A stretch of 64,000 nt of DNA from Candidatus Gottesmanbacteria bacterium RIFCSPHIGHO2_01_FULL_40_15 (GTDB taxonomy: Bacteria > Patescibacteriota > Microgenomatia > 2-02-FULL-39-11): assembly GCA_001779115.1 (NCBI GenBank), contig MFJF01000012.1, forward strand, positions 33,142 through 97,141, in the 5' to 3' direction. The notes under the pieces were generated by a model. The model did not search any database. It was not told the DNA's origin and saw nothing but the letters and a program-made list of their open reading frames with translations. Shown here piece after piece: positions 9,192-64,000 of the stretch (the first letter of the stretch is position 1; each line of letters starts with the position of its first letter). A program made the translations under genes and the position numbers.

Positions 9192-9752
9192 ATGAATATC
9201 GCCATTTTAGGCGGGAGATTCGACCCGCCGCATATTTGGCATTTCTGGACCGCCCAGCAGGTACTTGAAAATGTCAAAGATTTAGACCAAGTATGGTATA
9301 TGCCTGATTACCAGAATGCCTTTAAGCCGATTGAAGCAGGAGCAGGGGAAAGGCTTGAGATGTTGCAGTTTATGGAGACCGGGAAAATTAAGACTTCAAA
9401 TATGGCAATTTCCGAACCCGGAGTGACTTATACGGTAAAAACAGTGAATGAGCTGGTTAAAGACAAAAAGAACAGGTTTTTCTGGATTGTCGGGTCTGAT
9501 ATATTATCTGAATTTCATAAATGGCGCGATTACCAAAAATTGAGCCGGCTGATTACTTTTTTGGTTTTTCCCAGAAAGGATTTTCCGATAAAACACATAC
9601 CGGCAGGGTTTAGACGGATTGAGGGGCATTTAATGCTATCAAATGTATCTTCTTTTATAGTCCGGGATAGAATCAAACGCGGTTTAACAGTCAGCGGACT
9701 GGTTTTTCCGGCTGTTGAGGAATATATCAGGAAGAAAAACCTTTATAGATAA
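9192..9752 (+). CDS. nadD: nicotinate-nucleotide adenylyltransferase
   Basis: 186 aa. The N-terminal GGRFDPPHIWH motif corresponds to the (H/T)xGH nucleotidyltransferase signature of NadD. Confidence 0.7.
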   Translation: MNIAILGGRFDPPHIWHFWTAQQVLENVKDLDQVWYMPDYQNAFKPIEAGAGERLEMLQFMETGKIKTSNMAISEPGVTYTVKTVNELVKDKKNRFFWIVGSDILSEFHKWRDYQKLSRLITFLVFPRKDFPIKHIPAGFRRIEGHLMLSNVSSFIVRDRIKRGLTVSGLVFPAVEEYIRKKNLYR

Positions 9753-30540: not shown

Positions 30541-31851
30541 ATGAGAGCAAAAATAATATTGGAAGAAAATGAATTACCGGAAAATTTTATAAACATTAAT
30601 TATTACCTGAAAAAATTTTTGGGAAAATTACCCGATCCACCGCTAAATCCGGAAACGCATAAACCGGTTGGAGCAGCTGACCTGGAGGCTATTTTTGCCA
30701 AAGAATTAATAAAACAGGAAGCAACACTCAAGGAGGTTGTCGGTATTCCTGAGGAGGTCAGAAAGAAAATGTCGGGTTACCGGCCAACACCTTTGTTCCG
30801 GGCCGGGTCTTTGGAGAAAATTCTGGATACTCCGGCCCATATTTATTACAAATATGAAGGTGCAAGTCCGGTAGGCAGTCATAAAATGAATACAGCTCTG
30901 GTGCAGGCATATTATAACCGGAAGCAAGGAATAAAAACTCTGATAACCGAAACAGGTGCCGGACAATGGGGGTCGGCGTTAAGTTTGGCCTGTTTTTACT
31001 TCGGGCTTAAGTGTCTGGTATTTATGGTGAGGATTTCATATGACCAAAAACCTTACAGAAAGACTGTTATGAATATTTACGGAGCCGAAGTAAGACCGAG
31101 TCCGTCAGCGACAACCGAATACGGAAAATTGTTATTAAAAGATAATAAAAATCACGCGGGCAGCCTGGGAATTGCCATAAGCGAAGCTCTGGAATCGGTT
31201 GTCAAAGGAAGGGAAGCGAGATATTCTTTAGGAAGCGTTTTGAATCATGTCCTTTTACATCAGACAGTAATCGGACAGGAAGCAAAAAAGCAGATGGAGA
31301 AGACAGGCGAATATCCGGATATTATTATCGGTTGTTGCGGCGGAGGAAGCAATTTTGCCGGTATCGCCTTTCCTTTCCTGGCAGACGGATTGAAAGGAGA
31401 ACGGGAAAATACAAAATTCATCGCGGTAGAACCGGAAAGTTGTCCATCGTTAACCCACGGAGCATACCGGTATGATTTTGGTGATTCAGCACAAATGACA
31501 CCGCTTCTCAAAATGAAAACACTGGGAAGCGATTTCATTCCGTCACCGATTCATGCGGGAGGATTAAGATATCACGGAGTGGCACCTCAAGTTGCCTTTT
31601 TACATGAGGAAGGATTAATTGATTCCAAGACTTACGGACAGCCGGAAGTATTTAAGGCGGCAATAATATTTGCCAGAAGTGAGGGTATTATTCCCGCTCC
31701 CGAATCGGCACATGCCATTAAAGCGGCAATCGATGAGGCGATTAGAGCCAGAGATGAAGGAAGGAAAAAAGTTATCCTTTTTAATCTCTCCGGACACGGA
31801 TTGCTGGATTTGGGTGGATATGAAGGCTATCTGGCGGGACATTTAAAATAA
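30541..31851 (+). CDS. trpB: tryptophan synthase beta chain-like PLP enzyme, TrpB2 type
   Basis: 436 aa. PLP-lysine region PVGSHKMN (TrpB has GGAHKxN). It is TrpB2-length rather than the ~400 aa of TrpB1 and carries a glycine-rich CGGGSNFAG PLP phosphate loop. Confidence 0.75.
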   Translation: MRAKIILEENELPENFININYYLKKFLGKLPDPPLNPETHKPVGAADLEAIFAKELIKQEATLKEVVGIPEEVRKKMSGYRPTPLFRAGSLEKILDTPAHIYYKYEGASPVGSHKMNTALVQAYYNRKQGIKTLITETGAGQWGSALSLACFYFGLKCLVFMVRISYDQKPYRKTVMNIYGAEVRPSPSATTEYGKLLLKDNKNHAGSLGIAISEALESVVKGREARYSLGSVLNHVLLHQTVIGQEAKKQMEKTGEYPDIIIGCCGGGSNFAGIAFPFLADGLKGERENTKFIAVEPESCPSLTHGAYRYDFGDSAQMTPLLKMKTLGSDFIPSPIHAGGLRYHGVAPQVAFLHEEGLIDSKTYGQPEVFKAAIIFARSEGIIPAPESAHAIKAAIDEAIRARDEGRKKVILFNLSGHGLLDLGGYEGYLAGHLK

Positions 31852-58022: not shown

Positions 58023-58670
58023 ATGAAACACCAGACGTTTTTAATGTGGTTTTTCATTTTTCTTGTTTGGGCTTTTTACCGGGCTAATTTTCAATTACCG
58101 GAATCCGTTGACGAATTCATTGTTAAACCACTGGTTTTTGTAATGCCGATTGTTTATCTGGTATGGGTAAAGGAGAATAAATCGTTAAAAGAAATCGGTT
58201 TAGGGATTAAACTAAAAGGATTGGTTATTGATCTTTACATCGGGGTTGTTTTGGGGATACTTCTGGCGGTTGAAGGGTTACTGGCCAATTATCTGAAATA
58301 CGGAAAATTTTCCTTTCTACCTATTGAAGCGCTGTTTATTGCCGGCGGAATAGGCAGTTTTTTACTCATTAACATAGCAGCTTCGGTTTCTGAAGAAATT
58401 TTCGGACGCGGCTATTTATATAACAGACTTTTTAAAACGTCCAAAGAACAGGCAGCTTGTGCGGTTGTTTCAAGTTTTCTTTTTATGCTTATTCATATTC
58501 CGATAATGTTCACCAGGCTTCATTTAACCGGTAACGCACTGATTTTTTATCCTTTGTCAATTTTTACGATGGGAGTAGTGAACAGTTATGTTTTTACAAT
58601 GCGGAAAAATCTTGTTTTACCGGTGTTGATTCATACCTTCTGGAATATGACGGTCAGTCTTTATCTTTAA
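58023..58670 (+). CDS. CPBP (CAAX protease / Abi) family intramembrane metalloprotease
   Basis: 215 aa. EEIFGRG (EExxxR), FMLIHIP (HxxxH-like) and HTFWN motifs. Confidence 0.7.
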   Translation: MKHQTFLMWFFIFLVWAFYRANFQLPESVDEFIVKPLVFVMPIVYLVWVKENKSLKEIGLGIKLKGLVIDLYIGVVLGILLAVEGLLANYLKYGKFSFLPIEALFIAGGIGSFLLINIAASVSEEIFGRGYLYNRLFKTSKEQAACAVVSSFLFMLIHIPIMFTRLHLTGNALIFYPLSIFTMGVVNSYVFTMRKNLVLPVLIHTFWNMTVSLYL

Positions 58671-58888
58671 TCTTTATAAACAGAGGAAATGTAGCCGGCG
58701 TTTTTTATCACTGAAATAATTATTTCCTCGGTTACTTTTTCCGGATCAAATTCAACAAAACAGAGTGCTTTAGCGTAGTTGGTATTTGATTTTTTAACTC
58801 CAGCAGTATCCTCCAGTTCAAAATCAATATTTAAAGCGCAGGAAGTACAATGCATATCATGTATTTTAAAAAGAGTTTTTTTTGTCAT
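58667..58888 (-). CDS. heavy-metal-associated (HMA) domain protein / copper chaperone CopZ-like
   Basis: 73 aa. MHCTSCA (MxCxxC) metal-binding motif in a ferredoxin-like fold. Confidence 0.75.
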   Translation of the reverse strand: MTKKTLFKIHDMHCTSCALNIDFELEDTAGVKKSNTNYAKALCFVEFDPEKVTEEIIISVIKNAGYISSVYKD

Positions 58889-58908: not shown

Positions 58909-59937
58909 TCAGATTACCCGGATTACACCACCGTACATTCCCATACTGCAGGAAAAACTTATATCCCCAGCCGTATTCGGAGTTTTTATTTCAACAGTAT
59001 CATTTGAACCCGTTCTTATTATTTTTTGCACGTTAAGTTTGGGTATGGAAAATGCCTGGATGCAGCCGTAACCGTCATTATTTACCAGATTTAATTTCAC
59101 CAGTGAATTCTTTGGGACAGTAATTGAACGGGGAGAATAGCCGTTTGACCGGAAATAAATTGTTGCTTCAGTTACGGGAACGTCAGAGGCGGCCAGAATC
59201 TGATGAGGACAAATACTTAGCGCTGTACAGGAAAAGTCCAACCAAGCTGATTTTATCAAAACGCGGCCGCCGGAGAGAGAAAGAGCATTGTTAATATTAA
59301 AAACAGCCAGAATCAGGATGGCAAAAGCAGCTACTCTCATAAATCTATTTTGAAAAACATTATTTAATTTTCCGGCCAGGAAACCGAAAATAAAAAATAA
59401 CGGAGAAGTTCCGAGAATAAAGGAAAACATAATCAGGGCAGAATAAAAAGGATCAGCCGTGGCCAGGGCTAAGGCCATAATTGCCTGAGTAGTACCGCAG
59501 GGAATAAAAACCGTCAGAGCGCCAAGAACACCCGGCGCGAAAATGTCGTTGCTTTTGCTTTGATTTTTCAGAAGCCGGAAGAGAAATTTCGGGGGAGTTA
59601 TAACAAAATACCGAAAAACGGGATGAATATTGAGAATATTTAAAGCCGTGCCGATCATAAAGACAGCAACTGCAGATTGGATAAATGCCTGAGTGATGAC
59701 GGAAAAGCGAAAGTATGAACCTAGGAAGCCTAATAAGAATCCGAGAACAGTATAAGCGACAAGCTTTGAGATGAGAAATGATAAAACAGGGAAGAGACTG
59801 CCGGATTTTTTCATTTTTGACATGAGCCGTTTATTTTCGCGTTGCGCCAATACAGCTGCCAGCAGACCACCCTGGACAGCCATACAGGTGAGTCCGCCGG
59901 TTAACAACCCTGTCAGAAAAACGGTATAGATTTCCAT
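58909..59937 (-). CDS. DsbD_2/TauE-like permease fused to a C-terminal cupredoxin-like extracytoplasmic domain
   Basis: 342 aa. The N-terminal ~230 aa have 6 TM helices with LTGGLTCMAVQGG and FIPCGTTQA motifs. The C-terminal ~110 aa are a beta-rich soluble domain with Cys/Met/His (SFSCSMGMYGG). Adjacent to the HMA chaperone gene. Confidence 0.4.
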   Translation of the reverse strand: MEIYTVFLTGLLTGGLTCMAVQGGLLAAVLAQRENKRLMSKMKKSGSLFPVLSFLISKLVAYTVLGFLLGFLGSYFRFSVITQAFIQSAVAVFMIGTALNILNIHPVFRYFVITPPKFLFRLLKNQSKSNDIFAPGVLGALTVFIPCGTTQAIMALALATADPFYSALIMFSFILGTSPLFFIFGFLAGKLNNVFQNRFMRVAAFAILILAVFNINNALSLSGGRVLIKSAWLDFSCTALSICPHQILAASDVPVTEATIYFRSNGYSPRSITVPKNSLVKLNLVNNDGYGCIQAFSIPKLNVQKIIRTGSNDTVEIKTPNTAGDISFSCSMGMYGGVIRVI

Positions 59938-59978: not shown

Positions 59979-61409
59979 TTACCGATTCAATTGATAGATT
60001 ACAAAAGGTTGGTTGTCATAAATAACTGAATATTTATTTACAGTTTCTCTTCTTACAATATCGGCAAAATCACCAGTCAAACCATTATTAAAAAGAATAT
60101 AGGTGAAATACCCGTCCGAAATAGCTTTCCGGAAGCCTTCATAGCTTGACAGACCCTGATAGTTAATTTCAAAAGGACCGGTAAGCGCTTCTTGTGGAAT
60201 TTCCGGTAAGGCCAGATCGGTGACATTGCCTTCACTTGAGAGAATTTTGTCTCCTGTTGAGACAACTGATTTCAAACCAGTCATAGCATTTTCAGAATTA
60301 GGCCATGATGTTTCCAAGTCTTTTTTTTGAGAGAAAGAGTAGAGAAAAACCATAATTAGGAAAATAAAAGACAAACCTGCTCTTATGGCCATGTTTTTCT
60401 TACTTATATTACTTATGAGGAAGCCGGCAGAAGGGAGGAGAAAGACAAGGGACAGGAAGACATGCTGGTGTGCAGCATCGAGATTATTGGTTAAAAGGTG
60501 AGCCAATGGAACAGTCAGAGCTCCAAACAGCAAAAAAAAGGCGATACCTTTTGCTTTTAGAAAAAGGAAGAAAAATCCGACAAGGGCGAAAGGCAATACA
60601 GGCAGAGAAAAGACATAAAACTCGTTAATTATTTCAGAATAGTGTCTTTGCGGGTCGGGAATCTGATTGATGACAAATTCGCGAAGATCAGGAAAATAAA
60701 TTACCAGATAAGAAATTATTGCCAGTGACAAAGGGAAAATAAAATACTTAAGGGTCAGATTCAAAGATAACCGGTCTTGTTTCAAACTTTTATAAATTGC
60801 CCAAACAGCAATAAGCGGGAAAAGGATCAGGGTCGTATATTTAGCCAAAAAGGAGAGAAATAAAGACAGCGCCGACAGAAAATAAAAATTTTCCTTCTGC
60901 CAGAGTCCGTGTTTTTTAACAGCCAATCCAGAAAGCAGGAAAAAAAGGCCAGCTAAGAAAAAGGTAAATGAAAGCATGTCGTAAATTGCCAGACGGCTCA
61001 GATAGACCGGAATACTCATTACAGCCAGAAGAAAAGCGGATATACCGGCAATAAATTCATTATTATCAGATATATCGGATAAATGAAGTTTGAACGTGAA
61101 ACCGTAAAGCAAATAGACTGACAAAGTACCCAGAAGGACGTTTAAGAGACGGGAACCCAATAAACCCCCGATGTTATAAAAGAGAGCTGAAAGGGACGGA
61201 TAAAACAGAGGCATACCGCCGATCCAGGAAAAGGGTGATTCTTCCTGCCAATGACCTTCAAGGACTTTTTCCCCCAATTTAATATAAATAGCCTCATCCA
61301 GAAAAGGAGTGTTGTAGTTGAGGTTAATTACCCTGAATAGAAATGCCGCCAAAATAATTAAAACCAGCGGATTATAAAAAAGCCATTTAAAAACAGATTT
61401 GTTATTCAT
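59979..61409 (-). CDS. GT-C fold glycosyltransferase (GT39/ArnT/PMT-like)
   Basis: 476 aa with about 11 TM. FLDEAIY near the N-terminus matches the DE motif of GT-C dolichyl/undecaprenyl-phosphate-sugar transferases. Confidence 0.55.
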   Translation of the reverse strand: MNNKSVFKWLFYNPLVLIILAAFLFRVINLNYNTPFLDEAIYIKLGEKVLEGHWQEESPFSWIGGMPLFYPSLSALFYNIGGLLGSRLLNVLLGTLSVYLLYGFTFKLHLSDISDNNEFIAGISAFLLAVMSIPVYLSRLAIYDMLSFTFFLAGLFFLLSGLAVKKHGLWQKENFYFLSALSLFLSFLAKYTTLILFPLIAVWAIYKSLKQDRLSLNLTLKYFIFPLSLAIISYLVIYFPDLREFVINQIPDPQRHYSEIINEFYVFSLPVLPFALVGFFFLFLKAKGIAFFLLFGALTVPLAHLLTNNLDAAHQHVFLSLVFLLPSAGFLISNISKKNMAIRAGLSFIFLIMVFLYSFSQKKDLETSWPNSENAMTGLKSVVSTGDKILSSEGNVTDLALPEIPQEALTGPFEINYQGLSSYEGFRKAISDGYFTYILFNNGLTGDFADIVRRETVNKYSVIYDNQPFVIYQLNR

Positions 61410-61527
61410 TTATAATGAGTATCCCTTGTCAAACCAACCCGACAATATTTATCCGGTTTAACAATTTATTAATAAAAATCACATTAAATTTCATAAGATT
61501 TATGTCAGAAAGAGAAAAAATTGAATT

Positions 61528-61953
61528 TCAGGCGGAAATTAATTTTTGTCTTAATCCAAGGAGGTAAATAATACTCAAGATATTGGAAATTATGGCTATT
61601 ATCAGAATTAATACCTGATATTGAATAATAAAGAAGGTTAAGAAAGAGAGACCAATTAAAGGCAGAATGTCGGTTAAATGATGAGCGCAACAGGCAATCA
61701 TACCAACGGTTGATACTGCCGAGTTGGCGGCAGCCAATTTTCCGGAACTGTCTGTGAGATTTTTCAGGGAAACGTAGAGACCTATTTGGACTCCAAATCC
61801 CAGCGATAACGGAATCATATAAAACCACAGTTTTTTAAATTGTATCAGGGTTGTTTCAAAAGAACCGGCAAGGTAAGTCATGGTGATAAAATAAAAAAGC
61901 AGAAGAAATGATCCGGCGGTGATACCTGAAGCTATCGGTTTATATTTATTCAT
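61528..61953 (-). CDS. small polytopic membrane protein with a vicinal-cysteine motif (ACCAHH)
   Basis: 141 aa, 4 TM. CC pair followed by HH in a loop. Last gene of a four-gene operon. Confidence 0.3.
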   Translation of the reverse strand: MNKYKPIASGITAGSFLLLFYFITMTYLAGSFETTLIQFKKLWFYMIPLSLGFGVQIGLYVSLKNLTDSSGKLAAANSAVSTVGMIACCAHHLTDILPLIGLSFLTFFIIQYQVLILIIAIISNILSIIYLLGLRQKLISA

Positions 61954-62396
61954 TAAAATTCAAATTCCCTCCTTGTTATCCCGGCCAGGTCTTTGATAAT
62001 GATTTTATAAGGTGGGGGAACTTGCGGAAAACTTAATTCCGCCTGACGGTGATGACCCCCACCGTAAAGAGTTATATCACGGGGTTTTCCGGATGAATTT
62101 TGATACTCCAGCAGAACGTTTTTTCCAAAATTGAACTGATCGAGATCGACTGAATGGGTATCCAATGAAACGGAGAAAAAGAGCGTGTCTTGAGATGATT
62201 TTTCCGATAGAAATTTTATACTTACCGAAACATTTCCTTGCTCCTGAAATTGAGAATTTTTATTAAGATTAGTGTCAAGCGGATTAATTTTTTGTATTTC
62301 CCTTTCTTCTTTTGCCAAACTGATAAGAGAAATAAAAACTATCAGAAAAATTACAATTATTAATGTTTTATATTCCCAGGACAGTTTTTTTATCAT
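61953..62396 (-). CDS. hypothetical secreted/anchored protein (signal peptide, GGGHH motif)
   Basis: 147 aa. N-terminal signal/anchor, then a soluble domain. Start and stop are coupled to the neighbours. Confidence 0.3.
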   Translation of the reverse strand: MIKKLSWEYKTLIIVIFLIVFISLISLAKEEREIQKINPLDTNLNKNSQFQEQGNVSVSIKFLSEKSSQDTLFFSVSLDTHSVDLDQFNFGKNVLLEYQNSSGKPRDITLYGGGHHRQAELSFPQVPPPYKIIIKDLAGITRREFEF

Positions 62397-63496
62397 CAGA
62401 CACCGCAGCCTCCTCCGCCTTCCACTTTGGGCAGCAGACCTTCCGTCTGGAGTTGTTTGTTAATGGCAGAATATCCCTGACCGCTAGAATAGTCGGCACC
62501 AAGAACTACTTGTGGATCGACCTTATTCCAATCCTGACCATTTTTTGACTTAAAATACATTGCCAGCTCGACATAAGTCTGCGGAAACCAATATGAATTA
62601 AGAACTAAAGCATTTTTATAAATTTCTTCTTCGGGCATATTTTGACTTACGGCTAATTCAATAAAACCAAGCATGGCAGCGCCGTGGTTGCAATCAGGGA
62701 AAAAAGTGGAATTACCGCAACACGGCCGGTAGATTTTTTGGGATATTTTGGTGACAAGAGTTTCCTGTTTTTCAGTTAAAAGGAGTATGGGGAAGCGGTT
62801 AAACAGGGAACCGCCATCTTCCTTACCCAAAGTCCAACCTCCGGTTGAGGCAAAACTACCGGCATCGTATTCCGACTTCGTGCCCATGGGACCCTGGGAT
62901 AATGTTTTGGTTTTATTGGCGATTCCCAATGGCCAAAGAAGATTTAGAATAATTTGAGAGTTATCATTGGTGACAATGATATCCTGATCCGATTTATTAT
63001 CCAGCAGAAGGCTTATTTCGTCAGGCAGACCACCACGGCTTTCATAAAGGGCGAGGAATTTCTGTTTGTCTATAGCGCCAACCTCAACTAATTTTTTAAC
63101 GGTTGAACCGAAAGAAACGCCCAAATTATGTTTTTCCGGCAAGACTTCTTTGGTTATCTGATCAGTATCAGCAGTTTGCGGGGGAGTCGGAGATAAATTG
63201 TTATTAAATGTTGAAGAAAGGTTCAGGCCGGCGAATGGTGATTTGTTATAAATTTTCGGAACCAGAATAAAAAGCAGAAAACCGGCTAAAAGTCCGGTAA
63301 TCAAACCGGTTACATATGATTTCCGGGGTTTATATTGCAGCGGATTAAAATCAGCAGATTTAAGCAAATCTTCTGAATCTTTCCCCGTAATGCAACAACA
63401 ACTTTTGTGTTGGTGTTCTTTTTTTAAATTTTTTACCGGGGTGTCTAAACTTTCCGGATTTTCAATTACTGCTTTTTTATTTTTTCTGACTGCCAT
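62396..63496 (-). CDS. hypothetical single-pass membrane protein with cysteine clusters (SCCC, PCCGNSTFFPDCNHG, C-terminal GGGGCGV)
   Basis: 366 aa. One TM near residue 75. Extracytoplasmic Cys-rich motifs. Confidence 0.3.
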   Translation of the reverse strand: MAVRKNKKAVIENPESLDTPVKNLKKEHQHKSCCCITGKDSEDLLKSADFNPLQYKPRKSYVTGLITGLLAGFLLFILVPKIYNKSPFAGLNLSSTFNNNLSPTPPQTADTDQITKEVLPEKHNLGVSFGSTVKKLVEVGAIDKQKFLALYESRGGLPDEISLLLDNKSDQDIIVTNDNSQIILNLLWPLGIANKTKTLSQGPMGTKSEYDAGSFASTGGWTLGKEDGGSLFNRFPILLLTEKQETLVTKISQKIYRPCCGNSTFFPDCNHGAAMLGFIELAVSQNMPEEEIYKNALVLNSYWFPQTYVELAMYFKSKNGQDWNKVDPQVVLGADYSSGQGYSAINKQLQTEGLLPKVEGGGGCGV

Positions 63497-63992
63497 AACG
63501 GGCCTCCTTAATGAAAATTTTAAATAACAGGATAAGAGCCAAAAGAACTAAAGCATCAAGAAGAGGATTTTTCAAAACACCTGATATCCGGAAAATAAAA
63601 TTTCTCAAAGCATCACCATAGGCCATATTTTGTTCCATCTGAATTTTTCCGGTTAAAGCAAGATAGGCTATTATGATTGAGGAAATCATGAAGGTTATAG
63701 ACGAGATTAATTTTAATGGTTTATCGGCTTTACTTTTTATTTTATACAGATAGCGACCGGTCAGTTTTTCATAAAAAACCGAGAGAAAAAAGAGCGGAAA
63801 AACGATTCCCAAGACGTAGACTAATGATACAATGAGTGATGTTATAAGAGTCGGGGAAAGAGAAGAGAGAGTAATGGCGGCAAATAAGACAGGCGCACAG
63901 CAGGATGAGGTTATTCCGGAAAAGACTCCTAATATAAACGTTGAAAGAACAGTTGTTTGGCGAGGCATGGTGTAACGGGGGAGGGGCAACAT
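63477..63992 (-). CDS. small membrane protein with a vicinal-cysteine motif (SSCCAPVL)
   Basis: 171 aa, 4 TM. CC pair in the first helix. First gene of the minus-strand operon. Start is near the window edge. Confidence 0.3.
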   Translation of the reverse strand: MLPLPRYTMPRQTTVLSTFILGVFSGITSSCCAPVLFAAITLSSLSPTLITSLIVSLVYVLGIVFPLFFLSVFYEKLTGRYLYKIKSKADKPLKLISSITFMISSIIIAYLALTGKIQMEQNMAYGDALRNFIFRISGVLKNPLLDALVLLALILLFKIFIKEARYGSQKK

Positions 63993-64000
63993 AAGTTTAA

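Follow-up and report, generated by a model that had tools for sequence, protein, structure and literature searches.

Gene content and layout of the locus

The window analysed here, a 64,000-nt stretch of a Candidatus Gottesmanbacteria contig, carries at its end four co-directional minus-strand ORFs, referred to as genes 1–4 (Table 1; gene 1 as an ORF at 63477-63992). The preliminary description had proposed four translationally coupled genes, and the overlaps at 63477-63496, 62396 and 61953 are indeed present: genes 1 and 2 share 20 nt, with AAGGAGG ahead of the overlap, and the gene 2/gene 3 and gene 3/gene 4 junctions are one-base overlaps reading TGATG and TAATG, respectively. The motifs ascribed to the products—SSCCAPVL, SCCC, PCCGNSTFFPDCNHG, GGGGCGV, GHH and ACCAHH—were all recovered at their translated coordinates. 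Given the low cysteine frequency across the window (0.54%), the occurrence of CC in only 4 of 62 non-overlapping ORFs (≥100 aa), three of them genes of this operon, and a chance expectation of 0.4–1% per protein, the CC motifs are not fortuitous.

Table 1 Features of the operon and its downstream neighbourhood (window coordinates)
Feature	Coordinates	Strand	Assignment or basis
Gene 1 (3' two-thirds in window)	63477..64000	minus	CC-type CcdA/DsbD-superfamily membrane protein
Gene 2, 366 aa	62396..63496	minus	Anchored ectodomain, large uncharacterised family
Gene 3, 147 aa	61953..62396	minus	N-terminally anchored, extracytoplasmic
Gene 4, 141 aa	61528..61953	minus	4-helix membrane protein
Polytopic membrane protein, 476 aa, possibly GT-C-like	59979..61409	minus	Sub-threshold NCBIfam match
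DsbD_2 + C-terminal cupredoxin-like fusion, 342 aa	58909..59937	minus	Pfam
CopZ-like HMA metallochaperone, 73 aa, MHCTSC	58667..58888	minus	Pfam
Rce1-like (CPBP) intramembrane protease homologue	58023..58670	plus	Pfam

Downstream, a permease–cupredoxin fusion and a copper chaperone had been proposed, and both were borne out by Pfam (DsbD_2, E 6.6e-31, with Cupredoxin_1, E 3.2e-12; HMA, E 5.7e-11). The best NCBIfam matches of the HMA protein, to the MerTP, CopZ and MerP families, all fall under their own cut-offs. In many Gottesmanbacteria-type loci the two genes recur together on the downstream side of the module. The neighbouring gene labelled a GT-C glycosyltransferase exists, but the only support for its label is a sub-threshold match to NCBIfam TIGR03663 (Agl23; E 1.5e-8; score 34 bits, cut-off 126), and searches of Pfam and of PDB sequences returned no match. 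This 476-aa protein was found in seven loci, six of which are near-identical copies of the source locus; the GT-C-like gene is lineage-specific and lies outside the conserved module. Convergent with the HMA gene is an Rce1-like gene (Pfam E 7.5e-17) that holds the same place in nine Gottesmanbacteria-type loci, its link to the module being uncertain.

On the source contig, genes 1–4 make up the distal portion of a copper-responsive resistance cluster that spans about 13 kb from CsoR to CopZ. The order on the operon strand is CsoR, cupredoxin, CopA, a heavy-metal response regulator and histidine kinase (cztR/cztS-like), DUF1573 (CxC), CC-type CcdA, genes 2, 3 and 4, the lineage-specific membrane protein, the DsbD_2–cupredoxin fusion and CopZ. 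CsoR displays the ligand pattern C…H-x3-C (C-H-x3-C), and CopA is of the CPC type (ACPCALG; TIGR01511, 566 bits against a cut-off of 397). Selenoprotein forms of DUF1573, in which UGC occupies the CxC site, have been described (PMC9312934). Thioredoxin and thioredoxin reductase genes lie a little further off, and a rhodanese gene sits in the contig's island. The reported lack of CopA and thioredoxin therefore applies within the window but not to the contig, where CopA is directly upstream. Of the two metals initially considered, copper is the one retained, because of the upstream CsoR, cupredoxin, CPC-type CopA and heavy-metal two-component system; mercury is not favoured, since MerA and MerR (as well as MerB) are absent from CPR loci.

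Gene 1 resembles CcdA with doubled cysteines

The reading frame of gene 1 is open up to the window end, with no in-frame stop upstream, and is thus truncated by the window edge. The full gene on the source contig (L002:9196-10020) encodes 274 aa with ~6–8 hydrophobic segments, in place of the four TM segments of the initial account. Besides SSCCAPVL (63885-63908), the full-length protein has a second CC motif, FAPCCITF. Comparison with Thermus thermophilus CcdA (PDB 5VKV) by phmmer gave an alignment over residues 9-185 (E 1.9e-8), in which both catalytic cysteines of 5VKV align with the first cysteine of each CC; FAPCCIT and (S/T)xCCAPVL are invariant across about 30 orthologues. No Pfam or NCBIfam model scores on the full-length protein. 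By homology, then, gene 1 is assigned to the CcdA/DsbD superfamily as a distinct CC/CC variant in which both active-site cysteines are doubled. The preliminary description had assigned none of the four proteins to a known family, and had set a match to CcdA against its proposal; the former holds for genes 2, 3 and 4 but not for gene 1, and the match was found in part, the superfamily being that of CcdA but the CC/CC variant falling outside the Pfam and NCBIfam models. Electron transfer does not require the doubled cysteine found in both CcdA repeats, which would fit a metal–thiolate site equally well.

Gene 2 represents a large cysteine-containing family

Gene 2 encodes an N-terminal anchor followed by an ectodomain of roughly 260 aa; the positive-inside rule places the ectodomains of genes 2 and 3, and of the gene numbered before gene 1 (gene 0), in an N-in/C-out orientation. 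The core motif PCCGNSTFFPDCNHG (62681-62725) and the C-terminal GGGGCGV (62399-62419) belong to a pattern that is invariant in the family, PCC…DCNHG plus a C-terminal GG-C-x-x tail: the core motif was present in 146/149 representatives and the C-terminal cysteine in 136 of the 137 complete ones. More than 6285 homologues, forming 614 clusters at 50% identity, were retrieved. SCCC (63392-63403), by comparison, is not conserved but lineage-specific; it sits in a cytoplasmic insertion of roughly 45 aa at the N terminus, absent even from the closest homologues.

Sequence searches of gene 2 against Pfam, NCBIfam and PDB returned no match, and neither a CxxC motif nor a thioredoxin fold was seen. 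The AF2 model (pLDDT 79; core >90) has a mostly helical core, of which the motif loop is the lowest-confidence part, and a Foldseek comparison with PDB found no match. An archaeal neighbour family with the pattern C-x-Y-CCG…C-x-C-x-H…FFP…GGC (cluster 36) has ~68 core columns in common with gene 2 (probability 92.8% and E 3.9e-7 by hhalign), and repeats both its CCG…C-x-H-xx-AM-x-G pattern and its Gly-rich Cys tail at the C terminus. At about 200 aa, this family is missing the N-terminal half of the gene-2 ectodomain, and it too is uncharacterised. Pfam PF13798 (PCYCGC motif domain), likewise extracytoplasmic and Cys-rich, recurs as a gene 2 neighbour in Chloroflexota and archaeal loci, and its P-C-x-C-G…D-C superficially resembles gene 2; profile comparison showed no kinship (probability 0.5%).

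Genes 3 and 4 travel together

The product of gene 3 contains no cysteine and exactly three histidines—H81 (DTH, 62151-62162), H115 and H116 (GHH, 62049-62057)—all invariant in 10 homologues. Its sequence pattern suggests a beta-rich protein, and the gene evolves fast; a search of a large database gave only two matches, and three of the ten members weakly matched Pfam DUF5643. Gene 4 has 89 homologues and carries the invariant MIACCAHHLTD (ACCAHH at 61678-61695), with C88, C89 and H91 invariant and H92 nearly so. Its AF2 model (pLDDT 83, low at the motif) had no fold match in PDB. By sequence it is not a member of the MerT family (merT_RC607, 15 bits against a cut-off of 130). One gene 4 homologue (P0180) is fused to HMA and another (P0275) to the gene-2 domain, and distant homologues adjoin genes for P-type ATPase, YHS, cupredoxin, multicopper oxidase and DUF411. 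Genes 3 and 4 are a pair travelling together in copper contexts. The CC and His motifs of the operon are invariant within their families, SCCC of gene 2 excepted; judged by these searches, genes 2, 3 and 4 belong to uncharacterised families, that of gene 2 being very large.

Vicinal cysteines within membrane segments might mean that the CC-CcdA and the CC-HH protein of gene 4 are themselves transporters of thiophilic Cu(I), Ag(I) or Hg(II) ions in the manner of MerT/MerC/MerF, with gene 2, DUF1573 and gene 3 as outside donors or acceptors. The four invariant cysteines centred in the CcdA fold, the HMA fusion in P0180, a weak MerT or MerE resemblance of gene 4, an adjacent mer operon in Trinickia and the downstream DsbD_2–cupredoxin and CopZ pair would agree with such a conduit. 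We nevertheless regard it as distinctly unlikely: the MerT-type matches are far under cut-off, the mercury genes MerA and MerR are missing from CPR loci, and the classical adjacency of CcdA and TlpA, seen in 10 loci, fits electron transfer.

The module recurs beside copper pumps

Among 81 non-redundant gene-2 loci, neighbours included CopA/HMA (44), CC-CcdA (35), DUF1573 (28), CsoR (20), DUF5676 (19), TlpA-like proteins (10) and Met-rich proteins (5), and module genes recurred with CopA and CsoR or CueR among the 80+ loci surveyed. A reciprocal survey of metagenomes starting from CC-CcdA, its sample biased towards CPR relatives of the query, yielded 31 loci flanked on both sides by no less than 2.5 kb, of which 28 contained DUF1573, 26 gene 2 and 20 CopA. 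DUF1573, CC-CcdA and gene 2 make up the conserved core, a tight trio beside CopA. Synteny is pronounced in both directions, but the four genes are not one indivisible unit: genes 3 and 4, as a pair, can be parted from the core. Many archaeal and proteobacterial gene-2 homologues have neither CC-CcdA nor DUF1573 nearby.

A TlpA-like gene that overlaps or directly adjoins CC-CcdA was present in 10 loci. Woesebacteria-type CPR loci contain DUF2933, CC-CcdA, TlpA-like redoxin, ICMT-family gene, gene 2 and CopA; a plasmid of the cultured Burkholderia contaminans, with much of this gene set in common, has the similar order cueR, DUF2933, CcdA(CC), redoxin, thioredoxin, ICMT, peroxiredoxin, P-type ATPase and gene 2. 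Three uncharacterised families adjoin copper pumps from tiny uncultured bacteria to culturable Burkholderia plasmids.

The gene-2 domain is also found fused to gene 4 (P0275; E 3e-19 and 2e-61), HMA (P0240), a type-1-Cu cupredoxin (P0333), a CPxCG 4-TM domain and, in three representative clusters (P0246, P0256 and P0280), rhodanese. The rhodanese fusions, together with three DsrE-family genes near gene 2 in P. fungorum, point to an alternative sulfur chemistry, in which the envelope Cys motifs would carry sulfane sulfur or persulfides, for instance so that copper is precipitated or detoxified as sulfide, or polysulfide is handled. A rhodanese gene in the source island and another in a Woesearchaeota gene-4 locus would be in keeping with this, and the CsoR family includes persulfide sensors. 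The CsoR here, however, has the Cu(I) ligand pattern and stands before cupredoxin and CopA, most loci are without rhodanese, and the CPR loci showed no enzymes of sulfur oxidation or reduction; we deem persulfide traffic very unlikely.

The cupredoxin genes and fusions of the cluster raise a further option, namely that gene 2 acts as a Sco/PCuAC-like chaperone that loads neighbouring cupredoxin-domain proteins rather than serving defence. Such a role would follow the CcdA–TlpA–Sco logic (PMC9145763), and a SCO–TlpA–CcdA set lies next door in B. contaminans. Yet control of the cluster by CsoR or CueR, combined with an efflux pump, typically points to detoxification, and the gene-2 family is far wider spread than any one cupredoxin partner, leaving cuproprotein maturation highly improbable.

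A candidate thiol-based Cu(I)-handling module

A thiol/metal-handling or disulfide-relay system of unrecognised families, as first suggested, is supported in general outline by the copper-cluster context and the motif invariance. Gene content, motif invariance, synteny, fusions, copper context and CcdA homology can be read directly from the loci; metal binding by genes 2, 3 and 4, the direction in which electrons or metal would flow, and the pairing of each protein with its reductant are inferred. Our best reading, with about an even chance of being right, is an extracytoplasmic thiol-based Cu(I)-handling module that would be reduced via the CcdA variant, by analogy with Scs or CcdA–TlpA–Sco. 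CopA would expel Cu(I), and the anchored gene-2 protein may capture or relay it outside the membrane at its Cys-Cys…Cys-x-His site, aided by the flexible Gly-rich C-terminal Cys arm. The CcdA variant would draw on cytoplasmic reducing equivalents and pass them to a partner outside the membrane—putatively DUF1573 in the source lineage and a TlpA-like redoxin in others—which would keep the gene 2 thiols reduced and able to bind metal. Gene 3, with its three-His ectodomain, and gene 4, with its membrane CC-HH, may form a second metal-binding pair resembling a periplasmic binder plus small membrane transporter, as in MerP/MerT or CopC/CopD. Weighing against this reading are the handling of Ag(I) too by CopA-type pumps, the mer operon in Trinickia, the rhodanese fusions and DsrE neighbours, the gene-2 homologues that stand apart from CC-CcdA and DUF1573, and the doubled CcdA cysteines, which suit a metal–thiolate site just as well.

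Copper could instead be the stress and not the ligand: electrons passing from CC-CcdA via DUF1573 or TlpA-like proteins to gene 2 would undo copper-catalysed mis-oxidation of envelope thiols, with the proteins acting as reductases or isomerases, as in Scs and DsbC. The CcdA homology of gene 1, the TlpA-like, thioredoxin, peroxiredoxin and DsbA-like neighbours, the selenocysteine form of DUF1573 and the Scs precedent favour such thiol repair, and the Cys arm that ends gene 2 is reminiscent of the redox-active tails at the C terminus of large thioredoxin reductases. It appears rather unlikely all the same, in that gene 2 has no CxxC and a mostly helical core in place of a thioredoxin fold, with no PDB match; a combination of vicinal CC and His is more usual in metal sites; the gene-2 fusions with HMA and cupredoxin argue for direct metal handling; and genes 3 and 4 have no redox-type motif.

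Comparison with known systems

Like CcdA/DsbD-beta (Pfam DsbD_TM; 5VKV), gene 1 has both repeat motifs and the catalytic Cys positions (P-C…P); a TlpA-like redoxin gene comes next after CC-CcdA in other lineages, and RefSeq names the Burkholderia orthologue CcdA. Gene 1 differs in its invariant Cys-Cys pairs at both catalytic positions, in about 90 further C-terminal residues with extra hydrophobic segments, and in its neighbours, which are usually DUF1573 and gene 2 rather than cytochrome c maturation genes.

With Mer transport (MerT/MerC/MerF) the module has in common the vicinal cysteines in a transmembrane helix of genes 4 and 1, and with MerP the small HMA protein nearby, the gene 4–HMA fusion of one homologue being like MerTP. 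The flexible Cys arm of gene 2 also recalls MerA, whose C-terminal Cys-Cys tail hands metal to a buried site. Unlike in Mer, the context is CopA/CsoR copper and not mercury.

In Scs, Cu+-binding thiol oxidoreductases are supplied by a DsbD-type protein (PMC10907172; PMC3322552). Gene 1 lacks the alpha and gamma domains of ScsB, and no ScsC, ScsD or Sco of thioredoxin fold occurs in the window; DUF1573 and gene 2, as the presumed clients, are of unrelated folds and carry CxC or CC…C-x-H rather than CxxC or CxxxC. What the locus would share with Salmonella ScsABCD and with CcdA–TlpA–Sco is the plan of a copper-linked envelope module in which a DsbD-superfamily protein reduces extracytoplasmic Cys proteins.

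Operon architecture and genomic context

The four minus-strand open reading frames (ORFs) assigned to an operon in the preliminary description, here genes 1 to 4, are all present, as is the translational coupling claimed for them. Genes 1 and 2 share 20 nt, with an AAGGAGG Shine-Dalgarno sequence 5′ of the gene-2 ATG, and the gene 2/gene 3 and gene 3/gene 4 junctions read TGATG and TAATG, with a GGAGG-like sequence before each. Gene 1 exists but is incomplete here, its frame running open as far as the window end; the full gene encodes 274 aa. A promoter and terminator scan returned nothing exceeding shuffled expectation. Hydropathy and the positive-inside rule predict the products of gene 2, gene 3 and gene 0—a DUF1573 protein gene upstream of gene 1—to span the membrane once, N-in, and to display their domains on the outer side of the cell.

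Every quoted Cys/His motif was recovered by translation at the expected coordinates. At a Cys frequency of 0.54% in the window, the chance of a CC per protein is 0.4–1%; the motif occurs far above this chance, in 4 of the 62 non-overlapping window ORFs of ≥100 aa, three of which are neighbouring genes of the module. The sole other such ORF encodes 436 aa and carries its CC at residue 265. The SCCC of gene 2, one of the motifs quoted, lies within a ~45-aa N-terminal cytoplasmic insertion that is missing from all other gene-2 homologues, and was rejected as a conserved element.

Coordinates of the operon, its neighbours and related features at other loci (L, numbered loci or contigs)
Feature	Locus	Position	Strand
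Gene 1 (cut by window end)	window	63477-64000	-
Gene 2	window	62396-63496	-
Gene 3	window	61953-62396	-
Gene 4	window	61528-61953	-
476-aa gene	window	59979-61409	-
DsbD_2-cupredoxin fusion	window	58909-59937	-
HMA/CopZ-like gene	window	58667-58888	-
Rce1-like (CPBP) gene	window	58023-58670	+
Further CC-containing ORF	window	30541-31851	+
YibE_F/rhodanese/YHS insertion	L002	7083-8546	
DUF5676 gene	L002	6690-6956	-
DUF5676 gene	L019	11779-12045	
Uncalled 476-aa gene	L004	12088-13518	
ICMT/PEMT-family gene	L019	5033-5683	
ICMT/PEMT-family gene	L022	1366-2037	
ICMT/PEMT-family gene	L021	9242-9907	
ICMT/PEMT-family gene	L087	4730-5389	
Gene-2 homologue, twin-arginine-like	L077	9857-10810	
Gene-2 homologue, twin-arginine-like	L087	9001-9951	
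Gene-2 homologue, twin-arginine-like	L088	7869-8786	

The operon is the tail of a copper island

The gene-2 protein is identical in six assemblies. We read full-length gene 1 on L002 (GCA_001779255.1, MFJO01000001.1, Candidatus Gottesmanbacteria), where the window ends at position 9497. Following the operon strand, the locus encodes the copper regulator CsoR, a cupredoxin of 121 aa, a P-type ATPase and a two-component system of response regulator and histidine kinase; then, in L002 only, an insertion of YibE_F, rhodanese and YHS genes; then the DUF1573 protein and genes 1, 2, 3 and 4; and lastly the 476-aa protein, the DsbD_2-cupredoxin fusion and the HMA protein. With 566 bits, the ATPase clears the cut-off of 397 set for the copper-ATPase model TIGR01511, and it carries ACPCALG and an N-terminal MHCASC, the CsoR homologue has the Cu(I) ligand pattern C…H-x3-C, and the two-component system is nearest to the cztR/cztS-silRS-copRS models, with scores slightly below their cut-offs. 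The ATPase model, the CsoR ligands and the similarity of the regulators together identify the four genes as the tail of a copper island. The initial remark that neither CopA, the Cu(I) P-type ATPase, nor thioredoxin is present holds inside the window but fails beyond its end. The insertion, which sits past the window end between the histidine kinase and DUF1573 genes, has no counterpart in the sibling assemblies L001, L003, L005 and L006, implying that the island varies at strain level.

Downstream of the operon, the 73-aa gene is an HMA/CopZ-type gene (Pfam HMA, E 5.7e-11, above cut-off), its MxCxxC reading MHCTSC, and the 342-aa gene is a fusion of DsbD_2 (108 bits) and Cupredoxin_1 (46.8 bits), both above threshold. 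The GT-C label given to the 476-aa gene has as its basis a single sub-threshold match, to the Agl23-like GT-C model TIGR03663 (E 1.5e-8, 34 bits against a cut-off of 126); Pfam and PDB sequence searches returned no match. This gene occurs in 7 of the 86 loci examined, six of the seven being near-identical copies of the window locus. No gene is called at its position in the sibling assembly GCA_001779385.1 (L004), where homology still finds the ORF; a frameshift or a gene-calling difference may account for this.

Gene 1 and its CC-type CcdA orthologues

The gene-1 fragment in the window scores below the Pfam DsbD_TM/CcdA threshold (21.4 bits against a cut-off of 27.1), and the full-length protein has neither a Pfam match at E ≤ 1 nor an NCBIfam match. 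Residues 9–185 of the full-length protein nevertheless match Thermus CcdA (PDB 5VKV; phmmer, E 1.9e-8). The full protein also reveals a second CC motif, FAPCCITF, and the two repeats, FAPCCITFLFP and SSCCAPVL, align to SPCVLPLVP and TPCIGPIL, such that in each repeat the catalytic Cys of CcdA falls on the first Cys of the CC pair. Both pairs are invariant in ~30 orthologues, including those of Burkholderiaceae and one archaeon. Judged from these alignments, gene 1 is a new variant within the known CcdA/DsbD_TM superfamily; we refer to it and its doubled-Cys orthologues as CC-CcdA. A TlpA-like redoxin gene lies directly 3′ of CC-CcdA in 10 loci, a context that would suit a putative transfer of electrons from cytoplasmic thioredoxin to an extracytoplasmic thioredoxin-like partner.

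Gene 2 represents a very large, uncharacterised family

Among the candidates scored, more than 6285 gene-2 homologues were found at E ≤ 1e-3; at 50% identity the family has 614 representative clusters. Pfam, NCBIfam and PDB sequence searches with gene 2 gave no match, and PDB sequence and profile searches with genes 2, 3 and 4 gave only noise: gene 2 is the member of a very large uncharacterised family that has neither a Pfam/NCBIfam model nor a PDB match. The AF2 model places 195 residues at pLDDT ≥90 in a mostly helical core, with a less confident Cys loop and a disordered C-terminal tail; Foldseek with this model returned no PDB analogue. The mature ectodomain (approximately residues 105–366) contains exactly four Cys (259, 260, 269 and 364), each invariant, as is H271. 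The pattern PCC-x-[NS]…DCNHG is kept in 146 of 149 diverse representatives.

Two neighbouring families were compared with gene 2. A short archaeal family has the core and tail in common with it (hhalign 92.8%, E 3.9e-7), and for the ‘GPCCCKCWRW’ family the relation is weak (14%). PCYCGC (PF13798), raised as a relative by motif and neighbourhood, was rejected for want of an hmmscan match and at an hhalign probability of 0.5%. Three proteobacterial homologues (L077, L087 and L088) carry a twin-arginine-like signal, FTRRRFL or FTRRDFI, in place of the N-terminal anchor; ~8 of the 149 family representatives start similarly. In Burkholderiaceae, a class I SAM methyltransferase gene always adjoins the gene-2 homologue.

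The gene-2 domain also occurs in fusions. It is joined to a gene-4 domain in the cluster representative P0275 (identities of 37% at E 3e-19 and 40% at E 2e-61), to HMA in P0240, to a cupredoxin with H/C/H/M ligands in P0333, and to rhodanese, with a lipoprotein signal, in P0246, P0256 and P0280. Some 14 representatives join it to a 4-TM domain with an invariant CPxCG; although the alignment of this domain with gene 4 is collinear, CC falling on CPxC, it is not significant (probability 18%), and we did not equate the two. Gene 4 is itself fused to HMA in P0180.

Nearly every member of the gene-2 family closes with Gly-Gly-x-Cys-x-x-COOH. Of 137 representatives with a complete C-terminus, 136 retain a Cys close to it, usually as GG-x-C-(G/S)-(V/A/I)-COOH. 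It is a long shot, and topologically awkward, that this Cys arm undergoes a prokaryotic CaaX-like maturation by trimming and/or carboxyl-methylation, perhaps lipidation; if so, copper defence would possess a modified thiol arm of its own.

The two CaaX-processing enzymes both have homologues flanking gene 2, in different lineages. In two Woesebacteria-type loci only 4 nt separate an upstream ICMT/PEMT-family methyltransferase gene from the gene-2 homologue, and in a third the distance is 25 nt; another such gene lies inside the Burkholderia plasmid cluster. An Rce1-like gene is convergent to the HMA gene in nine Gottesmanbacteria-type loci, the window among them.

Gene 3, gene 4 and DUF1573

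Genes 3 and 4 are uncharacterised families. Gene 3 lacks Cys and has exactly three His (H81, H115 and H116), all invariant; it evolves fast, a large database search yielding only 2 proteins, and weak DUF5643 matches in its family added little. Two motifs mark gene 4, an invariant MIACCAHHLTD on helix 3 and GFGxQIGLY on helix 2; it obtained neither a family assignment nor a fold match. It scored far below the cut-off of the MerT-type mercury transporter model (NCBIfam merT_RC607, E 0.022, 15 bits against 130); MerE matched 1 of 26 family members (E 0.022). The loci of candidate phyla radiation (CPR)-type bacteria hold no mer operon context (MerR, MerA, MerP), and Mer genes occur only beside the Trinickia gene-2 homologue. 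We judged a mercury system less likely than a copper system. Neither the gene-3 and gene-4 proteins nor their family members match CopC or CopD models of Pfam or NCBIfam; the likeness to a CopC/CopD-type pair is architectural only. The DUF1573 protein has a conserved (S/T)SC-x-CT motif, and selenoprotein forms with UGC have been reported in its family (PMC9312934).

The set recurs beside copper pumps

We compared neighbours within 6 kb of gene 2 across 80 species-level genomes and the window locus (81 non-redundant loci). A CC-CcdA search of metagenome contigs gave at least 566 matches; neighbours were counted in the 31 loci whose flanks each extend for 2.5 kb or more, a sample skewed towards CPR relatives of the query.

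Genes neighbouring gene 2 and CC-CcdA
Neighbour	Gene-2 loci (of 81)	CC-CcdA loci (of 31; CPR-biased sample)
CopA (gene 2: CopA/HMA)	44	20
CC-CcdA	35	
Gene 2		26
DUF1573	28	28
CsoR	20	
DUF5676	19	13
Genes 3/4	14	
Response regulator	12	
TlpA-like redoxin	10	
Histidine kinase	9	
Rce1-like	8	
Fer4_5	7	
PCYCGC	6	
DsbA-like	6	
Met-rich membrane protein	5	

Two gene orders were recurrent. Type A, that of the window, runs CsoR, cupredoxin, CopA, an optional two-component system, DUF1573, CC-CcdA, gene 2, gene 3, optional DUF2933 or DUF5676, gene 4, DsbD_2-cupredoxin and CopZ. Type B, of Woesebacteria-type CPR, runs DUF2933, CC-CcdA, TlpA-like, ICMT, gene 2, CsoR, CopA, gene 4, gene 3 and DUF5676. Plasmids of cultured Burkholderia contaminans closely resemble type B (cueR, DUF2933, CcdA(CC), redoxin, thioredoxin, ICMT, peroxiredoxin, P-type ATPase, gene 2); their gene-2 orthologue is annotated ‘hypothetical protein’. 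Distant gene-4 homologues, found without gene 2, adjoin P-type ATPase, YHS, cupredoxin, ArsR, multicopper oxidase, DUF411 and rhodanese genes. These arrangements delineate a conserved copper-island-associated set of Cys/His-motif envelope proteins that has DUF1573, CC-CcdA and gene 2 at its centre and genes 3 and 4 as a linked second pair.

DUF5676, which has two TM helices and a conserved W-(F/M)-H-G, occurs in L002, L019 and 17 further loci, and DUF2933 in ~20. Literature searches returned no publication that mentions DUF5676, and no functional study for the protein accessions or for PCYCGC. DPANN/Parcubacteria gene-2 loci hold more unnamed Cys-motif families: clusters 16 and 26 (L037, L048, L057, L069, L076, L083, L084), 17 (L049-L081) and 32 (L009, L024, L038, L048, L069). 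Among them are a membrane protein with an AHCPLC start paired with a helical protein ending in DCCKE, a secreted protein ‘GPCCCKCWRW…DGCGGEGH’, and, immediately next to gene 2, a Met-rich protein whose C-terminus carries a TM helix. A number of TPA MAG contigs bear the title ‘uncultured Gammaproteobacteria bacterium’ (L009, L018, L019, L021, L026, L030, L033) but encode a gene 2 that is 50–61% identical to that of Gottesmanbacteria, and several, e.g. L018, L030 and L033, show CPR-type synteny; these taxonomic labels are probably wrong.

A proposed role in envelope copper handling

A few model Gram-negatives have well-characterised copper defences of the envelope (Cue, Cus, Pco, Scs); to our knowledge, little is known about the fate of Cu(I) after CopA export in most other prokaryotes. 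In the mechanism we propose, Cu(I) exported by CopA would be captured or relayed by gene 2 at a predicted Cys3-His site, with the flexible C-terminal Cys arm assisting. CC-CcdA would deliver reducing equivalents via DUF1573 or a TlpA-like protein, such that gene-2 thiols stay reduced, and genes 3 and 4 may act as a binder and a membrane site. Three other readings stay alive on account of the Cys pairs of CC-CcdA, the rhodanese fusions together with DsrE neighbours, and the mer genes adjoining in Trinickia. That the module serves thiol repair only, and not metal handling, is unlikely; a metal-thiolate conduit is slightly less probable again, and sulfur trafficking is improbable.

The set is found repeatedly beside the copper pumps of CPR bacteria, DPANN archaea, Chloroflexota and Proteobacteria, and Cu(I) handling by it would add something solid and testable to the field of copper homeostasis. 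The module adds the gene-2 family, a CC/CC CcdA variant and two small companion families (genes 3 and 4) to the picture of copper defence, and may reveal whether the DsbD fold can switch from an electron conduit to a metal-thiolate site. Burkholderia and Paraburkholderia that can be grown in culture carry orthologous clusters on plasmids, under a CueR gene, which opens the hypothesis to direct genetics and metal-binding biochemistry—a rare prospect for genes first met in CPR genomes. Plasmid hosts of this kind are B. contaminans, B. thailandensis and Paraburkholderia fungorum, and the gene-2 orthologues include WP_027810704.1 and WP_028197075.1.

The overall logic of the module resembles known copper and thiol envelope systems. 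Scs comprises Cu+-binding thiol oxidoreductases fed by a DsbD-type protein (PMC10907172, PMC3322552), an arrangement that the proposed CC-CcdA-fed, Cu(I)-handling gene 2 would parallel. However, no thioredoxin-fold (ScsC-like) domain was found in genes 0–4, and gene 1 corresponds to the membrane domain only, lacking the alpha and gamma periplasmic domains of ScsB, which sets the module apart from Scs proper. The proposed module would follow a logic parallel to that of CcdA-TlpA-Sco as well.
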